DNA of 64,000 nucleotides from Bacteroidia bacterium (GTDB taxonomy: Bacteria; Bacteroidota; Bacteroidia; NS11-12g; UBA9320), in assembly GCA_965655315.1 (NCBI GenBank), contig CBFHGJ010000004.1:4382-68381 (forward strand), written 5' to 3'. A program made the translations under genes and the position numbers. This document shows positions 25,071 through 42,710 of this stretch, piece after piece. The notes beneath the pieces were generated by a model, which saw only the letters and a list, made by a program, of their open reading frames with translations, was not told the origin of the DNA and ran no database searches. Within the stretch, counting starts at the first letter, position 1. Every line of letters starts with the position of its first letter.

Positions 25071-25105
25071 ATCAATTTAGGCAAAGCTAAAGGAGGCAGT
25101 TCGTA

Positions 25106-34509: not shown

Positions 34510-35832
34510 TTGAAACGGATACACTTAATAGCAGTTGGCGGTGCCATCATGCACAATATGGCAATTGCCTTACAAAACAGAGGTTATAAGGTAACGGGTA
34601 GTGATGACGCTATATACGATCCTGCAAAAACTAACTTGGATAACGCTCAAGTCTCGACCTATATCGGTTGGGATACGGATAAAATAAATGCAGATATAGA
34701 TTATATCATTCTGGGCATGCATGCTAGAGCAGATAATCCTGAACTCCTCAAAGCTCAACAATTAGATTTGAATATTCAATCTTTTCCAGAGTTTGTAGCT
34801 GCAGAATGTAAAGACAAAAAACGAGTGGTGGTAGCCGGTAGTCACGGAAAAACTACAACTACAGCGATGATAATGCACGTACTCTCTGAGCTAAATCTCG
34901 ACTTTGATTACCTAGTAGGAAGTTCGATAGAGGGATTTAACCTATCGGTAAAACTTACCGATGCTCCATTAGTCATAATTGAAGGAGACGAGTATCTTTC
35001 TTCACCTCTAGACTTGCGTTCTAAATTCCTCTGGTACCAACCACATATTTCCATAATAACTGGAATAGCCTATGACCATATCAATGTGTTCCCAACTTTT
35101 GAATCTTATTTAGAAACATTTGATAAATTTATCAAATCCCATGCAGATGGAGGTAAATATTTTTGGTTTAAAAAGGACCAATACTTAGATAAGATGGCGA
35201 ATGCAAATCATACCATAAATCAAACCTACGACACTCCTGAATTTATATCTAATCGGAATGGAAGTAAGTTATACATCAATGAAACTGAGCACGAAGTATC
35301 AGTAGTTGGAAAACATAATCTAGAAAATCTCAAGGCCGCTGAATTAGTCTGTAAAGAACTAGGTATTACTACAAATAGATTTTATGAAGCAGCATCCAGT
35401 TTTACTGGAGCTGGAAGGAGAATGGAAAAAATAGTAGACCTCCCAAATCAAGTAGTATATAGAGACTTTGCTCATTCTCCAAGTAAACTAAAGGCTACTA
35501 CAGAAGCAGTTAAGGAAACTTATACAGGCAAGCTACTCGCAGTATTTGAATTGCATACATTTAGTAGTCTTACGGAAGACTTTTTACCACTATACAAAAA
35601 CGCGATGGAAAGTGCAGACAGAGCTATTGTATTTTATAGTGAAGCTATATTTACCCACCGTAAGATGAAAGTCCTCACACCAGAATATGTACGTAAATGC
35701 TTTGGGGAGGTAGAAGTAATAAACCATCCTAACGAGTTAGAATCCATTGTAAATTCTGCATTCAATGAAAAACAGAATATTCTACTAATGAGTTCAGGAA
35801 AATTTGAAGGATCTTCCTTTTCTTTTGACTAG
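34510..35832 (+). CDS. mpl: Mur ligase family protein, Mpl-like (UDP-N-acetylmuramate:L-alanyl-gamma-D-glutamyl-meso-DAP ligase)
   Basis: 440 aa. N-terminal MurC/Mpl-like Rossmann region and ATP-binding GSHGKTTTT. Confidence 0.7.
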   Translation: MKRIHLIAVGGAIMHNMAIALQNRGYKVTGSDDAIYDPAKTNLDNAQVSTYIGWDTDKINADIDYIILGMHARADNPELLKAQQLDLNIQSFPEFVAAECKDKKRVVVAGSHGKTTTTAMIMHVLSELNLDFDYLVGSSIEGFNLSVKLTDAPLVIIEGDEYLSSPLDLRSKFLWYQPHISIITGIAYDHINVFPTFESYLETFDKFIKSHADGGKYFWFKKDQYLDKMANANHTINQTYDTPEFISNRNGSKLYINETEHEVSVVGKHNLENLKAAELVCKELGITTNRFYEAASSFTGAGRRMEKIVDLPNQVVYRDFAHSPSKLKATTEAVKETYTGKLLAVFELHTFSSLTEDFLPLYKNAMESADRAIVFYSEAIFTHRKMKVLTPEYVRKCFGEVEVINHPNELESIVNSAFNEKQNILLMSSGKFEGSSFSFD

Positions 35833-36830
35833 AGCTGTTTGACTAGTAAGGAAATACTATAATTTGATGGCCCTGTCCTAGCAAATGAAGTGGCCCGAAT
35901 GGCATAGTATTTATCTTCCTTATTGAGAAGTAAGGTTAGTTCATCTGCCAATTCTAATGCATTATTCTCTCTATCCCAATGGACGAAGGTATTGAAGAGC
36001 TGATCTGTTTTATAAAACTCAAGTTTAGAGGCGTAGAAATAATCAATATTCTCAAACCCTGCTGTAGTATCTAAATAGAGAAAATTTGTTCTATAATTCA
36101 CAAGAAGTCCATTATAGATGCCAAAATTAGGGTTGATTGTATATTGCTCTGGAAAAATCTGATGAGTCTGAATAGAATCTTGGAGGTAAGTAAAGCATAA
36201 ATCCCAAGCACCTATTTGAGGTTCTACATTCTGAACTTTCTTATGCTTTTTAAATGAAAAATATGAATGAGCATAGTCAGAATCTTTATTAATCCAAACA
36301 GAATAAGTTGTATCATTATTAAGGGGTCCGTATCTCAAATGATAGGCATTTACCGTAGCATCAAGAAGCTGCAATTTATATAAGTAAGATGTGTCTTGAT
36401 CATTCCATAGTATTAAAAAAACATCCTTGAATGATTTAGGGTTGTCAAAGCTAAAGTCACCCCATTCACCTAATGCTGGAGAGAGCCCTTCTGGGGTAGG
36501 AACATCCATTTGCCAAACCACTTCAGGACCAAAACTACTCGCATCTACCGCGTCAAAGTCTGTTTGAGTAGTGTTATGTATCACAACATTATCCAACGTA
36601 TTTAAGTAAATACCCCAGCCTTGATTTGTGTTTTGAAATTTCAAATGCCAAGCCGGTTCTGATTCATTGTATTCGGGTAGTATTGAGCCCAAATCGATAT
36701 AGGCTGACTGATTTTCATCGATGCTAAGATTAACAGTAGTTTCTTGCGGAGCTATAGGAGGCAGTACTTCGTCTGGACGAAAACATGAAACAAGAAATAA
36801 ACAAAGCGTTATGTAACCTAGAGACCTCAT
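35829..36830 (-). CDS. lipoprotein encoded directly downstream of a TonB-dependent receptor (possibly HmuY-like accessory protein)
   Basis: 333 aa with lipobox LVSCF. Start overlaps the receptor gene stop. The HmuY-like call rests only on context and a W-D-L-x-F segment. Confidence 0.4.
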   Translation of the reverse strand: MRSLGYITLCLFLVSCFRPDEVLPPIAPQETTVNLSIDENQSAYIDLGSILPEYNESEPAWHLKFQNTNQGWGIYLNTLDNVVIHNTTQTDFDAVDASSFGPEVVWQMDVPTPEGLSPALGEWGDFSFDNPKSFKDVFLILWNDQDTSYLYKLQLLDATVNAYHLRYGPLNNDTTYSVWINKDSDYAHSYFSFKKHKKVQNVEPQIGAWDLCFTYLQDSIQTHQIFPEQYTINPNFGIYNGLLVNYRTNFLYLDTTAGFENIDYFYASKLEFYKTDQLFNTFVHWDRENNALELADELTLLLNKEDKYYAIRATSFARTGPSNYSISLLVKQL

Positions 36831-38746
36831 TTTATGTTTAGCCTGATATTGAAGAAAAAAGATCTTTCTTTATTTACGGTTAGTTTTTCTGAGTTTACTA
36901 AAACAGGTACTATATCTATAAATTCGTATTCATTCCTATTCATTTCTGTTGAGGAACCGAAATTGCTTATTCCAAAACTAATCATCATACTTTCATCTAA
37001 AAAACTACGCGAAACGGACATAGAACTTGTACGAAGTCGTTCCTCTTCCAACAAGCGTAACTCTCCTTGTTCAAAAGTCTGGTAATTCCTCTCCCCAATG
37101 AATCTATAAGTCCATCCAAACTTAAATTTAGAATTTGGCACTACTAGTTGTAAATAGCTATTGGCCTCAGGATAGAAGAATGTAAGTGCGTTGGTATCTC
37201 TTGTAGTATTAATGCCGTGAAGGATAACACTCGGCCTCCAATCAATCCAACTATTATTATAACTAGCTCTCAAATAGGTCATTGTACTCCTACTGCTCCC
37301 ATCATTTACAGCGGAAATAGAACTTGAAACTCTATGATTATTACGCCTATTCAGTAGCATCATCCCACTTTCAAAAGTGATATTCTTCCTATTGATTAAG
37401 ACTCTAACATTTGTCGAACTCAAGTCTACGGGTCTAAGTGTTAAATTATTTTTTGTCCCACCTGATAATTCTGCTGGATAAAAGATATTATCAAACATAG
37501 GATATGCAATAGATTGCTGATAGGAACCTAGAAGTTGTAAATTATTCTTTGGAGCAAGAGTAATTTTGAATGATGGAAGAAAATAACTGTTTGTCAAACT
37601 ATTCGTGAGTACTTTCATGCCTCCTTCTAAAAGGAAAGTTTTTCTAAACTCATACTGAAATAATCCTAGTGCAGAGTAGTCAGAATATGCCGGAGTTATT
37701 GCATTAATCTCTTCAAATTGATTATCCTTTACATTATTAAACTCTAAACCTAATGAGTAGTTAAAAGCTTTGTTTTTAGAAGTTAATAGCACAGATAAAA
37801 ATCCTTGGTCATAGCCTCTGACCGAAGACTGTTGTTCGTTTTGCTGTTCTTCCTGTATCCCTTTAGTTAGATCCTTGTCTATTATTGAGGGACGATTACT
37901 ATATCTGTTAATAAGGCCAGTAATAACTACACTATGATTCTTGGAAAGTTCTGTTTCTAAACTGCTGTATAAGTTGTTTCGATTGATCCGTTGCTCTATA
38001 TCTCTTACTCTAGTAGTACCCAAAAATACATTGCCTTTTTGCTGTGTTCTAAGTCTACTGTTATCACTTCCTACTGTCAATTTTACTGTCCTAAGAATGT
38101 TAAATTTATACCTTAGGTTTAGGTCGTATCTCTCCGAACCGCTAACTACTGTTCCCCTGTCTTCTATATCAGCATAAATAGGTGACAAAAAGCTTCTATT
38201 TAGACTAACTTGACCAATGTGTCTTCTGTTACTCAAGCTTATTGTTGTACCGATATGAAAATCGCTAGTCGAAGAATTTATAGCATAAGCATTGGCTGAG
38301 AACGGTTGGTCTGCAATAGATCTGCTATACAAATGAATTACTACACCCGCAATATTCTTAACTAAACTGGTGTGTGGTGAAAAATGGACTTCTATTCGAT
38401 CTATGTCAAACGTAGCAATGGACCGAAGATCATAGCCTACATTGTTATCCATCATCAGCGGAAGGCCATCCTTAAAAATTGCTATTTCGTTTAGTCTAAG
38501 AATACCGCTTCTAGTTTCTTGATCTCCTTCTTCAAAATACTGATATAATGAAGGTATCCTGAGTGCCTCTTCTAGATTTGTGATGTTATTTGTAAGCATG
38601 TCTGCTTGTGTGAGTACAAAGAATGCACTAGAATCCTGTCCAAAACCCAGGTAACTAAGAGATGTTAAGCTAAAGAATAAGATGTACTTTCTTAAAATCA
38701 CTATACGTTCGACAATCTTCAGTACAATGATACTTGTAAAGGCCAA
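36827..38746 (-). CDS. small TonB-dependent outer-membrane receptor
   Basis: 639 aa. Plug-domain signature (…IDRIEVHFSPHTSLVKNIAGVVIHLYS…) and a beta-strand-rich remainder. The N-terminus of the track ORF is probably extended upstream of the signal peptide. Confidence 0.65.
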   Translation of the reverse strand: MAFTSIIVLKIVERIVILRKYILFFSLTSLSYLGFGQDSSAFFVLTQADMLTNNITNLEEALRIPSLYQYFEEGDQETRSGILRLNEIAIFKDGLPLMMDNNVGYDLRSIATFDIDRIEVHFSPHTSLVKNIAGVVIHLYSRSIADQPFSANAYAINSSTSDFHIGTTISLSNRRHIGQVSLNRSFLSPIYADIEDRGTVVSGSERYDLNLRYKFNILRTVKLTVGSDNSRLRTQQKGNVFLGTTRVRDIEQRINRNNLYSSLETELSKNHSVVITGLINRYSNRPSIIDKDLTKGIQEEQQNEQQSSVRGYDQGFLSVLLTSKNKAFNYSLGLEFNNVKDNQFEEINAITPAYSDYSALGLFQYEFRKTFLLEGGMKVLTNSLTNSYFLPSFKITLAPKNNLQLLGSYQQSIAYPMFDNIFYPAELSGGTKNNLTLRPVDLSSTNVRVLINRKNITFESGMMLLNRRNNHRVSSSISAVNDGSSRSTMTYLRASYNNSWIDWRPSVILHGINTTRDTNALTFFYPEANSYLQLVVPNSKFKFGWTYRFIGERNYQTFEQGELRLLEEERLRTSSMSVSRSFLDESMMISFGISNFGSSTEMNRNEYEFIDIVPVLVNSEKLTVNKERSFFFNIRLNIK

Positions 38747-38782: not shown

Positions 38783-39643
38783 CTAGGCAGATATTACATC
38801 TACCTTACTTTTTCTCAGTTTTGTGAAGATAAATGCTAGGGCAAAGAGTATTCCGATGACTGCTGAGATAGCTCCTGCCACTGAAACATCCATTGCTTTA
38901 GCAAAATAATAGCCTATAAAGGAACAAACTATCCCAATAGCTGCGGACAAGAATAGCATCTTTTTAAAATCCTCAGTAAGCAAATAAGCGATAGCAGGAG
39001 GACCTGATAAAAATGCAATCACTAGTATGGCACCAACAGATTCGAAGCTAACAACAGTAGTAAGCGACACTCCACCCATCAAAAAGTAATGCCAAAAACT
39101 AACGGCGACTCCGGTAGACAAAGCAAAATTTGGATCAAAAGTGGTAATAAATAAACCCTTATATCCCCAAGCTACTGCCGAAACTAATACCACACAAACT
39201 ACCAATAAAATAACTGCTTGTCTAGGTAATGAAAAACCACCAATAATTGGTTGTAGCCATAAAGATACGTACTCAATCTCTCCATAAAGAACACATTGCT
39301 GATCTAAATCAGCATTTGCACCATATTTTGATATGAGGATAATACCTAGAGCAAATAATAGGGTATACGAAATTCCAATAGAAGCATCGCTCTGCAATTT
39401 TGCCTTTTTGGTAAACCACTCTATCATCAGTGTTGCTAAAATTCCACTTCCTGCAGCTCCGATGAGCATAGGGAAACTAGCTGTGGAACCTGAAAAATAA
39501 TAAGCAATGAAGATTCCCGGCAGGACAGCATGAGAAATAGCATCCCCAATCATAACCATTCTACGCATAACAAGGAAACTTCCCATTAAAGAGCAATTAA
39601 TCGCTACCAAGCAAGCTGTGAATATGACATAGAAATCGTTCAT
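38783..39643 (-). CDS. metal (Mn/Zn/Fe) ABC transporter permease, TroD/ZnuB family
   Basis: 286 aa, 8-9 TM, ABC-3 family pattern. Confidence 0.85.
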   Translation of the reverse strand: MNDFYVIFTACLVAINCSLMGSFLVMRRMVMIGDAISHAVLPGIFIAYYFSGSTASFPMLIGAAGSGILATLMIEWFTKKAKLQSDASIGISYTLLFALGIILISKYGANADLDQQCVLYGEIEYVSLWLQPIIGGFSLPRQAVILLVVCVVLVSAVAWGYKGLFITTFDPNFALSTGVAVSFWHYFLMGGVSLTTVVSFESVGAILVIAFLSGPPAIAYLLTEDFKKMLFLSAAIGIVCSFIGYYFAKAMDVSVAGAISAVIGILFALAFIFTKLRKSKVDVISA

Positions 39644-40929
39644 TAGTATGGTATTTTACTTTTGTGAGGATCTACTTCTGGCCTATCTAGTAACTTTATT
39701 AGCTCCTTCTCTATTTCAGGAGTGATGATATGTTCGATACCTTCAGCATCGTCGTGTATATGGTCTGCGTCTAGCTGGAAAAATTTGGTTAGATAGATCT
39801 CCCATAGTCTGTGCTTCCTAATTACCTCTTGAGCTGCTAACTTTCCCTTTTCATTTAGTATTATAAATCCTCTTACCAGATCAATCAAGTCTTTTTTCTC
39901 CAATCTATTGAGTACAGTCCGAACCTTAACTGGAGAGTACTTTTCTTTTTCAATTAACTCAGCTAAAGGCAATGAATTCTGTCCTTCGTTGCCCAGTTTA
40001 TATATATCTTTTAGAACATTCTCATTATTAATTTTTATATGATTTGACTGACGAATTCTCATCCTTGCAAAAACTCCTTTCCTTTTTCCAAATAGAATTC
40101 CAACAAGTGCAAAAACAGAAAGTACCACAACGATCCACGGTCCAGTGGGCATTCCATTGCCAGTATAACTAATTACAACACCCGTAATACCGCTTAAGAA
40201 ACCAAAACTGCCGGCATAAATCAACATGAGCTGTATAGAATTTGTAAGAAATCTAGCCCCGGCAGCCGGTGTAATAAGAAGTGCAGCCATGAGTACCACC
40301 CCTACAGCTTGAACTCCAATTGCTACCGTAACCACGGTCAATATGGCAAGGAGCGATTTTATAAGTGATACGTTAAGCCCTATGCTTTTGGCATAATGCT
40401 CATCAAAACTGATAGTACTAAATCCTCGCAGGAATATGCTTACACAGATAACATTGAGTATTGCTATAGCTGAAAATACTTGTATATCCAGCATTCCCAT
40501 AGATGCTGCCTTACCAAAAAGAAAACTATCCAAACCACTTTGAGCCGCATTCCCACTATGCTGTATCTTGGTAAGTAAAACTATCCCAATACCAAAGAAA
40601 ACGCTTAACGTAAGAGCTAAAATAGTGTCTGGTTTTAGCTTTGAGTTAGACTGAACATAGTCCACGACCCAAATAGAAATAAGTCCAGATATTATAGCTC
40701 CAGTAAGAAAGTAGAATGGATTTTTGACACCAGATAACATAAAAGCTATTGCCACACCTGGAAGAACAGAATGAGATATCACATCACCAATAAGAGCTCG
40801 TTTCCTCAAATAGGTAAAAGTTCCTACAACTCCAGCAGCTAGACATAATACACCAGAACCAATACTGACTACAAAAAGAGTAAAATTCTCAGCCGAAAAG
40901 AAGGTAGTTATATGTTCCCAAAAACTCAT
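39643..40929 (-). CDS. metal ABC transporter permease (TroC/ZnuB-like) fused to a C-terminal DtxR/TroR/MntR-type metal-dependent repressor domain
   Basis: 428 aa. Residues 1 to about 290 form an ABC-3 permease. Residues from about 300 carry a winged-HTH plus the DtxR metal-binding/dimerisation region (…RKHRLWEIYLTKFFQLDADHIHDDAEGIEHIITPEIEKELIKLL…PHKSKIP), colinear with DtxR (HRLAERFL…EEACRLEH…PHG). Confidence 0.78.
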   Translation of the reverse strand: MSFWEHITTFFSAENFTLFVVSIGSGVLCLAAGVVGTFTYLRKRALIGDVISHSVLPGVAIAFMLSGVKNPFYFLTGAIISGLISIWVVDYVQSNSKLKPDTILALTLSVFFGIGIVLLTKIQHSGNAAQSGLDSFLFGKAASMGMLDIQVFSAIAILNVICVSIFLRGFSTISFDEHYAKSIGLNVSLIKSLLAILTVVTVAIGVQAVGVVLMAALLITPAAGARFLTNSIQLMLIYAGSFGFLSGITGVVISYTGNGMPTGPWIVVVLSVFALVGILFGKRKGVFARMRIRQSNHIKINNENVLKDIYKLGNEGQNSLPLAELIEKEKYSPVKVRTVLNRLEKKDLIDLVRGFIILNEKGKLAAQEVIRKHRLWEIYLTKFFQLDADHIHDDAEGIEHIITPEIEKELIKLLDRPEVDPHKSKIPY

Positions 40930-41705
40930 TATTTATGACGAATTGGGAAATCTTTGTTTTCTAATTCTTGACTAATCTTAGCTATGGTAGTCAATCGACC
41001 TCCATAAGTGTCTGTTAGTATGTTATCTGTAAAAACATCTTTCACTGGACCAGAAGCTACCAATCTAGTATTTAATAGAACAAGGTAGTCAAAATAAGAC
41101 TGTGCGGTATGTAAATCGTGATGAACGATAACCAAGGTTTTCCCAGCTTCTTTCATATCCTTGAGAAGAGATATAATCATCTCTTCTGTGGCGATATCAA
41201 CCCCTGCAAAAGGCTCATCCATCAGGAACAAATCTCCTTGCTGTGCGATTGCTCTAGCCAAAAACACTCGCTGCTGTTGCCCACCAGATAACTGACTAAT
41301 TTGCCTCTTTGCAAAACCAAGCATGTTTACCTTCTCCAAGCTTTCTGCTACTATATCTTTATCTTCAGATGTTAGCTTTTTAAACAGTCCTCTTTTTTGA
41401 AATCTTCCCATGGATACAATATCCCAAACACTAGCAGGGAAATCCCAGTCTATCTCCTGTCTCTGTGGGACATAACTGACTCTATCCCTCACATCATCAA
41501 GCTCTTGATCATAGATTCTCGTAAACCCACTTGTTGGCTCTACTACTCCCATTATTGACTTGAGAAGTGTGCTCTTCCCACTCCCATTGGGTCCCATTAT
41601 ACCAATAACCTGTTTCTCAGGTAATTCGAAATCTACATTCCATAATGCAGGTTTTCTACCATAGACCACCGTCAGATTATGAGCTTCAATAATCGTTTTG
41701 CTCAT
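40929..41705 (-). CDS. metal ABC transporter ATP-binding protein (TroB/ZnuC-like)
   Basis: 258 aa. Walker A GPNGSGKST, signature LSGGQQQR, Walker B LFLMDEP. Confidence 0.9.
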   Translation of the reverse strand: MSKTIIEAHNLTVVYGRKPALWNVDFELPEKQVIGIMGPNGSGKSTLLKSIMGVVEPTSGFTRIYDQELDDVRDRVSYVPQRQEIDWDFPASVWDIVSMGRFQKRGLFKKLTSEDKDIVAESLEKVNMLGFAKRQISQLSGGQQQRVFLARAIAQQGDLFLMDEPFAGVDIATEEMIISLLKDMKEAGKTLVIVHHDLHTAQSYFDYLVLLNTRLVASGPVKDVFTDNILTDTYGGRLTTIAKISQELENKDFPIRHK

Positions 41706-42616
41706 TTCAATCCAGCTATTATTGTTTTGACATTGGCATTTAACATACCGAGATAAGTCCCCTCCATTGAATTCGTAGCACCAAGAGCATCGCTGTAGAG
41801 CGTGCCACCAATATTTAATTCGTACCCTCTTGCATTAGCCCCCTCTATCACTGCAAAAAGATTTTTATCATTCACACTAGTTTCCACAAAGACTGACTTT
41901 ATCTGGTTATCAATAATGAAATCAATCAGATCCTTAACATCTTTTGCTCCATATTCAGCTGCTGTAGATACTCCTTGCAGACCTCGCACTCGGAAGCCAA
42001 AAGCATCTCCAAAATATGAAAATGCATCGTGACTAGTTATCAAAATACGTCTTTCACTTGTTAGATTACTATCGAGGATAGCTTTTAAATCAGACTTAGT
42101 GTCCAATATTTTTTTGCCAAATAGTTCAGCGTTTTTATCAGTTCCCTCAAGTCCTTCTATTTTGCTAAGTTCTTTTGCAACCCCTATAATTCCCTGACTC
42201 CATAAGCTTGGGCTAAACCAAATGTGAGGATCAACTAAATCAGATTTATCATCCACTCTTTTAAGGTCTTCCTGAGTAACAAAATCTCCTAACGCAAAGA
42301 CCGACTTCTGCTTGGCATAATTCTCAAGCATCTTGGCCATTTTACCTTCAAGGTGGAGTCCATTATAAACAATGATATCAGCTTCACTTAGTTTAGCTAT
42401 ATCACCTTGCGTAGCTTTATATAGGTGAGGGTCCACACCTGCACCCATTAAGGAAATAACTTCTGCTTGGTCTTTAACAATTTCAGAAATGCAATCGCCA
42501 ATAATCCCTGTAGTAGTTACGATCACTATTTTGTCTGACTGCTCAGAAGAGTTGCACCCTAGAAATAAAAAAGGTACGGCAAACAGAACTAACGCAATAC
42601 TTTTGAGTTTTAGCAT
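41702..42616 (-). CDS. metal ABC transporter substrate-binding lipoprotein (TroA/ZnuA cluster 9 SBP)
   Basis: 304 aa with lipobox LFLGC. TroA-like fold motifs (DPHIW, HDAFSYF). Confidence 0.88.
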   Translation of the reverse strand: MLKLKSIALVLFAVPFLFLGCNSSEQSDKIVIVTTTGIIGDCISEIVKDQAEVISLMGAGVDPHLYKATQGDIAKLSEADIIVYNGLHLEGKMAKMLENYAKQKSVFALGDFVTQEDLKRVDDKSDLVDPHIWFSPSLWSQGIIGVAKELSKIEGLEGTDKNAELFGKKILDTKSDLKAILDSNLTSERRILITSHDAFSYFGDAFGFRVRGLQGVSTAAEYGAKDVKDLIDFIIDNQIKSVFVETSVNDKNLFAVIEGANARGYELNIGGTLYSDALGATNSMEGTYLGMLNANVKTIIAGLK

Positions 42617-42710
42617 AGAGCAAAGTTAAGTAGAATTGACACAGGACTAATACTTCGAAAGTGGATTCTATGCAAGCCTCTTAGACTTTTCTATAAACCA
42701 ATGATGACTT

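Follow-up and report, generated by a model that had tools for sequence, protein, structure and literature searches.

Can a permease of a metal importer carry a regulator of that same importer within its own polypeptide chain? The question is raised by a gene in a stretch of DNA from Bacteroidia bacterium (64,000 nucleotides of contig CBFHGJ010000004.1, assembly GCA_965655315.1; hereafter the window). In a single open reading frame (ORF), this gene encodes an N-terminal ABC-3 permease and a C-terminal domain of the DtxR type, here called the R-domain, and a sequence-only reading of the window had suggested that the product would be a membrane-anchored repressor of its own operon in the manner of ToxR. 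The protein is almost certainly a permease-regulator fusion of the YtgC-YtgR type (YtgCR) known from Chlamydia. Below, the domains and the predicted structure of the protein, its conservation, the possible ways in which the R-domain acts on metal uptake and its relation to known systems are described.

Domains and predicted structure of the fused protein

The permease domain matches the Pfam family ABC-3 (PF00950) at residues 19-280 (E 5.5e-59; 200 bits, cutoff 20), and residues 360-427 match Fe_dep_repr_C (PF02742; E 9.9e-24; 83.6 bits, cutoff 27). The full-length NCBIfam models of DtxR and MntR both match residues 303-427 with their profile positions 9-133, an alignment that takes in helix 1, the helix-turn-helix (HTH) and the dimerisation domain; the scores of 56.7 bits (DtxR) and 55.6 bits (MntR) are below the equivalog cutoffs of 290 and 350, respectively. 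When the C-terminal 148 residues are searched against the sequences of the PDB, SloR is the best match (4e-15), followed by DR2539, DtxR, IdeR and ScaR. An SH3/FeoA-like third domain, as present in the subgroup of DtxR, IdeR and SloR, is missing: the last residue corresponds to DtxR residue 134. This groups the R-domain with the two-domain members MntR and DR2539, still within the DtxR/MntR family; TroR of Treponema pallidum is likewise of the short DtxR type that lacks the SH3-like domain. Joined to a permease with eight transmembrane (TM) helices, the R-domain is not a soluble stand-alone member of this family.

AlphaFold2 (AF2), given 42 homologues, predicts a structure with a mean predicted local distance difference test score (pLDDT) of 83.4 and values of 86-93 over residues 290-380. 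The last of the eight TM helices (TM8, residues 262-280) is followed by a loop (281-285) and an unbroken helix (286-312), in which the connector runs directly into helix 1 of the DtxR-type module. After helix 1, the model has the helices H2 (322-329) and H3 (333-345), a beta-hairpin wing (349-358) and the dimerisation helices; this is the canonical topology of a winged HTH (wHTH) and a dimerisation domain, with a pLDDT of about 90 in the wHTH, and the two-domain module as a whole spans residues ~300-428. A Foldseek comparison pairs the permease half with PsaC, from the pneumococcal manganese importer (7kyp; template modelling score 0.87, root-mean-square deviation (rmsd) of about 3 Å), and the R-domain with structures of DR2539, IdeR and DtxR, some of them bound to DNA, at an rmsd of 1.4-2.3 Å over about 130 residues. 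Closest to residues ~298-428 is DR2539 (8pvt/8pw0; rmsd 1.4-1.8 Å). Because the segment right after TM8, GKRKGVFARMRIRQ, is strongly basic and the topology is PsaC-like, the R-domain is predicted to be on the cytoplasmic side of the membrane.

All ligand positions of DtxR are occupied in the R-domain and are invariant across the 42 homologues: DtxR M10, H79, E83, H98, C102, E105 and H106 correspond to N304, H373, E377, H392, E396, E399 and H400, and helix 1 carries an invariant E303-N304 at the primary-site position. In addition, D420 and H422 align with C123 and H125 of SloR. The dimerisation domain has three invariant motifs (RKHRLWE, DHxHDDAEGIEH and DPHxSxIPY), and the ligand motifs are common to the chlamydial-type and the other fused proteins. 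Oxygen or nitrogen donors (N/E) at the positions of DtxR M10 and C102 are, according to the literature on metal selectivity, a trait of manganese sensors rather than of iron sensors. Since these two sulphur-ligand positions are N and E in the window protein and the best matches, DR2539 and SloR, are manganese-responsive, the R-domain is likely to be a sensor of the Mn/Zn type rather than of the Fe type.

The central claim of the sequence-only reading, that the gene joins a permease of the ABC-3 family to a module of the DtxR/TroR type, is one on which Pfam, NCBIfam, PDB, AF2 and Foldseek agree. Its description of the C-terminal part as an HTH followed by the DtxR signature fits the predicted fold and the ligand positions; its alignment of the terminal motif needs correction, as the counterpart of DPHxSxIP is the C-P-H-G motif found in regulators of the SloR/ScaR type, and DtxR itself has SPFGNPIP at this place.

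Conservation of the fusion and variability of the winged HTH

PF00950 and PF02742 occur together in each of the 120 best homologues, which are 50-99% identical, about 428 amino acids long and mostly from metagenome-assembled genomes of Bacteroidia. The fusion is encoded in 19 of 21 independent genome loci, and the same architecture of 426-431 amino acids is present in more than 100 independent assemblies. Because of this recurrence, an artefact in which an assembly error or a missed frameshift joined separate troC and troR genes is excluded for all practical purposes. The reading frame is continuous, as the sequence-only reading had stated, AF2 predicts a continuous helix at the junction and the length of the connector is invariant throughout the family. 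Nothing in the window supports such an artefact, and one locus (L022) shows the opposite case, a fused gene that is split by a homopolymer frameshift.

A search with the R-domain only against 1.84 billion cluster representatives gave 3807 matches at E<=1e-3, and about 65 of the best 150 of these are full-length fused proteins of 400-506 amino acids. The IMG annotation of some members already joins a permease subunit and a Mn-dependent regulator of the DtxR family. Natural stand-alone R-domains (about 135 amino acids) were considered and rejected as artefacts: they are truncated gene calls on contigs of about 1 kb or, in L022, the product of the frameshift. One further protein of 134 amino acids (P0122) has a classical N-terminal half (EENYLKTIF...SASSVTDMYKKL) and a C-terminal half nearly identical to the R-domain of the window clade. 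It comes from an ENA contig of 1.1 kb and was left unused, since it could be a chimera of the assembly as well as a true recombinant paralogue.

Conservation is very uneven along the fused proteins. Within the window clade, the column entropy is 2.29 in the wHTH (residues 313-362) versus 0.93 in the transmembrane domain and 0.71 in the dimerisation domain, and the wHTH with its recognition region is the fastest-evolving part of the fused proteins. Its length varies too, from 57 to 93 residues for the wHTH stretch; the fold is never deleted in the family and is predicted with high confidence. The net charge of the wHTH, examined as a proxy of DNA binding, was uninformative. In a set of about 70 fused proteins with identities of at most 50%, the chlamydial type included, the spacing between the TGP motif ahead of TM8 and the EN motif of helix 1 is 38 +/- 1 residues almost without exception.

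How the R-domain may act on metal uptake

By analogy with YtgCR of Chlamydia, the R-domain may be freed from the permease by proteolysis and act as a metal-dependent autorepressor, a reading to which we give a probability of roughly 0.5. Rising cytoplasmic metal would bind to the R-domain at the DtxR/SloR-type sites (N304, E396, E399 and H400; H373, E377 and H392; D420 and H422). The C-terminal part, once cut from the membrane protein, would dimerise and repress the operon promoter with the metal as co-repressor, and the metal-bound R-domain would feed back negatively on the uptake system. Chlamydial YtgR is reported to show metal-dependent binding to the ytg promoter and to repress in a reporter assay, and its cleavage from YtgC, with a fragment of about 28-30 kDa, is reported from immunoblots in Chlamydia and in E. 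coli.

Four things support release followed by repression: this homology, a wHTH fold that is retained, contexts that mostly lack another regulator and a dyad in one promoter. No other DtxR-like gene is present near the operon in seven of the nine lineages with readable upstream context (L023, L024, L027, L028, L029, L031 and the window clade, for which the entire window is included). In one of the seven (L028, 4291-4306) a perfect palindrome of 16 bp, TTTAGCCTTGGCTAAA, lies 27 nucleotides upstream of the gene for the solute-binding protein (SBP), the first gene of the importer, and resembles the core of the DtxR/IdeR box; the counterpart in L022 is TTTAGATGCGTCTAAA.

Several findings weigh against this reading. 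The Pfam model of the HTH (PF01325) has no match at E<=0.01 in the fused protein, so that, of the three families that the sequence-only reading had named for a check, only ABC-3 and Fe_dep_repr_C are recognised; among the 120 best homologues a single one has a recorded PF01325 match and 119 have none. The mean pairwise identity of H2-H3 is 0.18 among 65 fused proteins versus 0.49 for the dimerisation domain, and the corresponding values of ten classical stand-alone regulators of about 220 amino acids from the same search are 0.46 and 0.58. The connector is fixed, helical and rigid according to AF2 and alignment, which a simple cut-off tether does not need. Two lineages have a canonical regulator in addition to the fused gene. 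In L022 (1660-6718) the operon opens with a three-domain DtxR regulator (PF01325, PF02742 and FeoA); here the frameshift in the fused gene is at an A6/G4 homopolymer and the second permease is interrupted by a 23S_rRNA_IVP ORF. In L025 (765-5834; 69% GC) a canonical DtxR-family regulator at the head of the operon is followed by SBP, ATPase and two permeases, and both permeases have a C-terminal Fe_dep_repr_C domain with intact ligand motifs.

Nor does the promoter region of the window offer a recognisable operator. It was scanned in the window and in 18 loci, from -110 to +15 of the SBP start, for imperfect palindromes with arms of 7-12 and spacers of 0-9. The best inverted repeat of the window pairs at 7 of 9 positions, and 95% of shuffled sequences contain one that is as good or better; the DtxR/TroR-like operator that the sequence-only reading had placed here was not found. 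In 17 orthologues the only significant repeats within the scanned region are the terminators of upstream genes. The positive controls were mixed: the promoter of the chlamydial-type locus L024 has no clear palindrome and that of L028 has a good one. The pattern TTTAG-N6-CTAAA, derived from L028 and L022, was tried as the operator of the window and rejected: its copies across the window are about as many as chance predicts (78 observed, 75 expected), and in 42617-42710 it is present only with two mismatches. Its sole perfect copy in the window (25076-25091; about 0.2 expected) is compatible with chance and overlaps a -7-type box; this copy is located in a gap of 35 nucleotides before a gene for a DUF5777 beta-barrel protein, in a cluster with YceI-like and cytochrome-c-like genes.

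Of the protease that release would require, the genomes provide a candidate. Genes for RseP/M50 site-2 proteases adjoin the fused operon 5 nucleotides downstream in L030 (2884-4911), after dxr in L024 (9565-11520) and upstream in L023 (2633-4849). The linkage of dxr and rseP is common in bacteria generally. These genes are a lead for the protease that releases YtgR, but no argument for cleavage within the membrane was built on the adjacency: the lineages of L024 and L030 are related and there is no M50 gene in the window, a further point against release.

An R-domain that stays attached and stalls its own importer (trans-inhibition), with DNA binding secondary or lost in the clade, is a tentative alternative. 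Metal at the primary site would clamp helix 1 (N304), which is continuous with TM8, to the dimerisation domain (E396, E399, H400); in a variant, the R-domains would dimerise and lock the transporter. Under gating, the wHTH would be vestigial or repurposed and other regulators would control transcription. Gating of this kind would fit invariant metal and dimerisation motifs beside a hypervariable wHTH, and a helical connector of 38 residues that is kept even in the chlamydial member while the wHTH stretch changes in length. It would also fit the missing operator palindrome and the operons of L022 and L025, where a canonical DtxR regulator, its HTH recognised by PF01325, is present anyway; in L025 the double fusion would place two R-domains on one transporter. 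One lineage has the fused gene as an orphan (L029, 2622-3908), between lgt and flagellar genes with no adjacent SBP, ATPase or second permease, and thus no operon nearby to regulate. However, the wHTH fold is kept everywhere at a pLDDT of about 90, DNA binding and repression have been reported for chlamydial YtgR, the promoter of L028 has its DtxR-box-like palindrome and most lineages have a single R-domain per heterodimeric transporter. The rapid evolution of the wHTH is equally expected of a dedicated local autoregulator and could reflect a private operator that co-evolves with it. Gating and release followed by repression are compatible and do not exclude each other.

It is unlikely that the uncleaved fusion binds the promoter and represses from the membrane when metal is abundant. 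Some observations would fit a function in the attached state: the fixed connector does not look degradable, no conserved cleavage motif was found in the homologues, and there is no sign of an internal start. An internal translation start that would yield a free R-domain was rejected because M290 is not conserved, and so was an internal promoter, as there is no TAnnTTTG (-7) box within the fused gene. According to a review of 2017, full-length YtgC repressed too in an E. coli reporter, and membrane-anchored repressors (LacI fusions) can work. Of the ToxR-like repressor of the sequence-only reading, the attached regulator domain stands, but in Chlamydia, the source of the one studied member, cleaved YtgR is the species seen, and for a repressor of this type, too, no operator was found. 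Between TM8 and the domain there are only about five non-helical residues, which leave it little reach beside the long linkers that ToxR and CadC have. DNA binding in the DtxR family also takes a dimer; as a single permease of the two carries the domain, such a dimer would require the pairing of two transporter complexes.

Chlamydia is a hard system in which to study a permease-embedded repressor. Patterns across the family can serve as testable discriminators between release and repression, tethered repression and transporter gating: the invariant metal sites, the fixed rigid connector, the hypervariable wHTH, the co-occurrence of canonical regulators and the double fusion.

The operon and its relation to known systems

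The operon is a tro/ytg-like ABC importer for Mn/Zn(/Fe), and the fused gene encodes the first of two permeases in the order SBP, ATPase, permease, permease (Table 1). This permease belongs to the ABC-3 type (cluster A-I), has the PsaC fold and is encoded beside an SBP of the ZnuA/TroA type and an ATPase. The tro-like operon proposed by the sequence-only reading is corroborated by the SBP: its best relative in the PDB is TroA of T. pallidum (2.2e-63), with the ligand motifs aligned. The motifs DPHLY, DPHIWF, SHDAF and YSDALG correspond to the His/His/His/Asp ligands of TroA, with roles that we take to be those in the TroA structure, and the N-terminus has a lipobox (LFLGC). The top NCBIfam models for the ATPase are Mn and Mn/Fe ATPases (about 1e-68). 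The start of the second permease overlaps the stop of the fused gene, and its position is syntenic in all loci.

Table 1. Positions of the fused gene, its domains, the syntenic genes and the promoter elements in the window
Feature	Position	Strand	Basis or remark
Fused permease-regulator gene, 428 amino acids, one unbroken ORF	39643-40929	-	
Permease domain, residues 1-280, eight TM helices, PsaC/TroC/YtgC-like	40090..40929	-	PF00950, AF2, Foldseek
Connector, residues 281-299, basic, GKRKG loop then helix	40033..40089	-	AF2
DtxR helix 1 and winged HTH, residues 300-362	39844..40032	-	AF2; least conserved stretch of the protein
DtxR-type metal-binding/dimerisation domain, residues 363-428	39646..39843	-	PF02742
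SBP, TroA-like periplasmic metal-binding lipoprotein, cluster A-I	41702..42616	-	Pfam ZnuA 2.6e-65
ABC transporter ATPase, TroB/YtgB/MntA-like	40929..41705	-	Pfam ABC_tran 5.8e-31
Second ABC-3 permease, TroD/YtgD-like, unfused	38783..39643	-	PF00950 1.1e-49
TonB-dependent-receptor-like outer-membrane protein, 639 amino acids	36827..38746	-	Weak Plug PF07715, 2.4e-05
Predicted lipoprotein, 333 amino acids, final gene of the syntenic cluster	35829..36830	-	Signal/lipobox ...CLFLVSC
Putative Bacteroidetes-type -7 box TAACTTTG	42621..42628	-	4 nucleotides upstream of the SBP ATG (42616-42614)
Intergenic/promoter region, expected operator site	42617..42710	-	No significant DtxR/TroR-like palindrome

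In the loci that encode the fusion, six genes are in syntenic order: the TroA-like SBP, the ATPase, the fused permease, the second permease, a TonB-receptor-like protein and a lipoprotein. The receptor-like gene is kept downstream of the second permease in most loci; in Pfam its product has only the weak Plug match and no match to a barrel model, and the lipoprotein matches no Pfam family. Because both genes (35829-38746) are syntenic with the importer across the clade, their products probably form its outer-membrane uptake stage.

Each of the 18 orthologous loci (L001-L021 set) has a TAnnTTTG box 4-8 nucleotides ahead of the ATG of its SBP gene. We take it to be the promoter, presumably of the Bacteroidetes type with its -33/-7 consensus. 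So short a distance to the start codon implies that the operon mRNA may be leaderless or near-leaderless.

Directly upstream of the metal-importer operon of sister-clade loci there is an element of about 105 nucleotides, ACCGTTAAACTTGTATC...GGCAGCCGACGnGAGTCGGCTGTTTT (L011, 4153-4258, plus strand). It is near-invariant in nine loci (L009, L010, L011, L012, L014, L015, L018, L019 and L021), within flanking intergenic DNA that is fully diverged, and is single-copy. It is preceded by TGACAnTTATnTGACAA and closes in an intrinsic terminator with the sole variable base in the loop. The element is absent from the window, has no Rfam match and a fold z-score of -4.1, and is a candidate small RNA or leader element. 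Elsewhere in the window there is an S-adenosylmethionine riboswitch (RF00162; 49850-49967, plus strand; 74.6 bits, gathering score 44.4).

The tethered architecture that the sequence-only reading had pointed out is already known: YtgC of C. trachomatis (YtgCR; CT069/CTL0325) has the same fusion at the same position of the ytgABCD operon, and such fusions of permease and DtxR-like domain have been described in 11 phyla. With more than ten years of knowledge from Chlamydia and with cross-phyla surveys, finding it again is not a discovery; the window protein is a new, unstudied member from an uncultured bacterium of the Bacteroidia, and we found no literature specific to fusions of Bacteroidota. 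We compared it with a chlamydia-like metagenomic orthologue (P0159), one of the full-length fused proteins from the search with the R-domain, rather than with the CT069 sequence of C. trachomatis. This orthologue is encoded in a chlamydial context (NTP/NDP translocase; gene order ytgABCD-dxr-rseP) and is collinear with the window protein, with 30% identity over 426 amino acids (E 8e-67). As in YtgCR, the DtxR-like domain is joined to the ABC-3 permease that is encoded first after SBP and ATPase, and the second permease is unfused; the chlamydial-type locus L024 has the same order of SBP, ATPase, permease and permease. The 38-residue connector, the ligand positions and the DPHxSxIP motif are all shared with the chlamydial-type orthologue. 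In contrast to YtgCR, the window member is from a free-living Bacteroidia lineage and has no WWW tryptophan-sensor motif, its operon is longer by the genes for the TonB-receptor-like protein and the lipoprotein, and its SBP is TroA-like with His/His/His/Asp ligands. The sequences of the recognition helices are unrelated between the window and the chlamydial type.

The importer is of the same type as that of the T. pallidum troABCDR operon, the source of the closest solved relative of its SBP (2e-63). In Treponema, TroR is a separate gene that closes the operon, whereas the regulator of the window is fused in-frame to the first permease, ahead of the second. The R-domain itself is most similar to manganese-responsive two-domain repressors, in structure to DR2539 and in sequence to SloR, with ScaR and MntR as further examples. 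However, these are soluble stand-alone dimers with a conserved recognition helix, while the R-domain is attached to a membrane protein and has a hypervariable wHTH.

ToxR and CadC resemble the window protein in that a DNA-binding domain is physically joined to a membrane protein. They have an N-terminal wHTH of the OmpR type, a long linker, a single TM helix and a periplasmic sensor, whereas here a DtxR-type module, with a sensor predicted to be cytoplasmic, follows a transporter of eight TM helices after a very short connector. With its different domain content and topology the protein does not belong to the ToxR/CadC class, and the resemblance is at most a functional analogy. If the R-domain gates its transporter, the fitting comparison is with MetNI (C2 domain) and ModBC, in which a cytoplasmic, ligand-binding and dimerising domain stops import as the substrate accumulates. 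Their regulatory domain is on the ATPase and has an unrelated fold; in the window it is on the permease, and gating is suggested by patterns in sequences. If gating is true, metal ABC importers would have a means of regulation that is new in principle, with the fold of a transcription factor reused as an allosteric domain.

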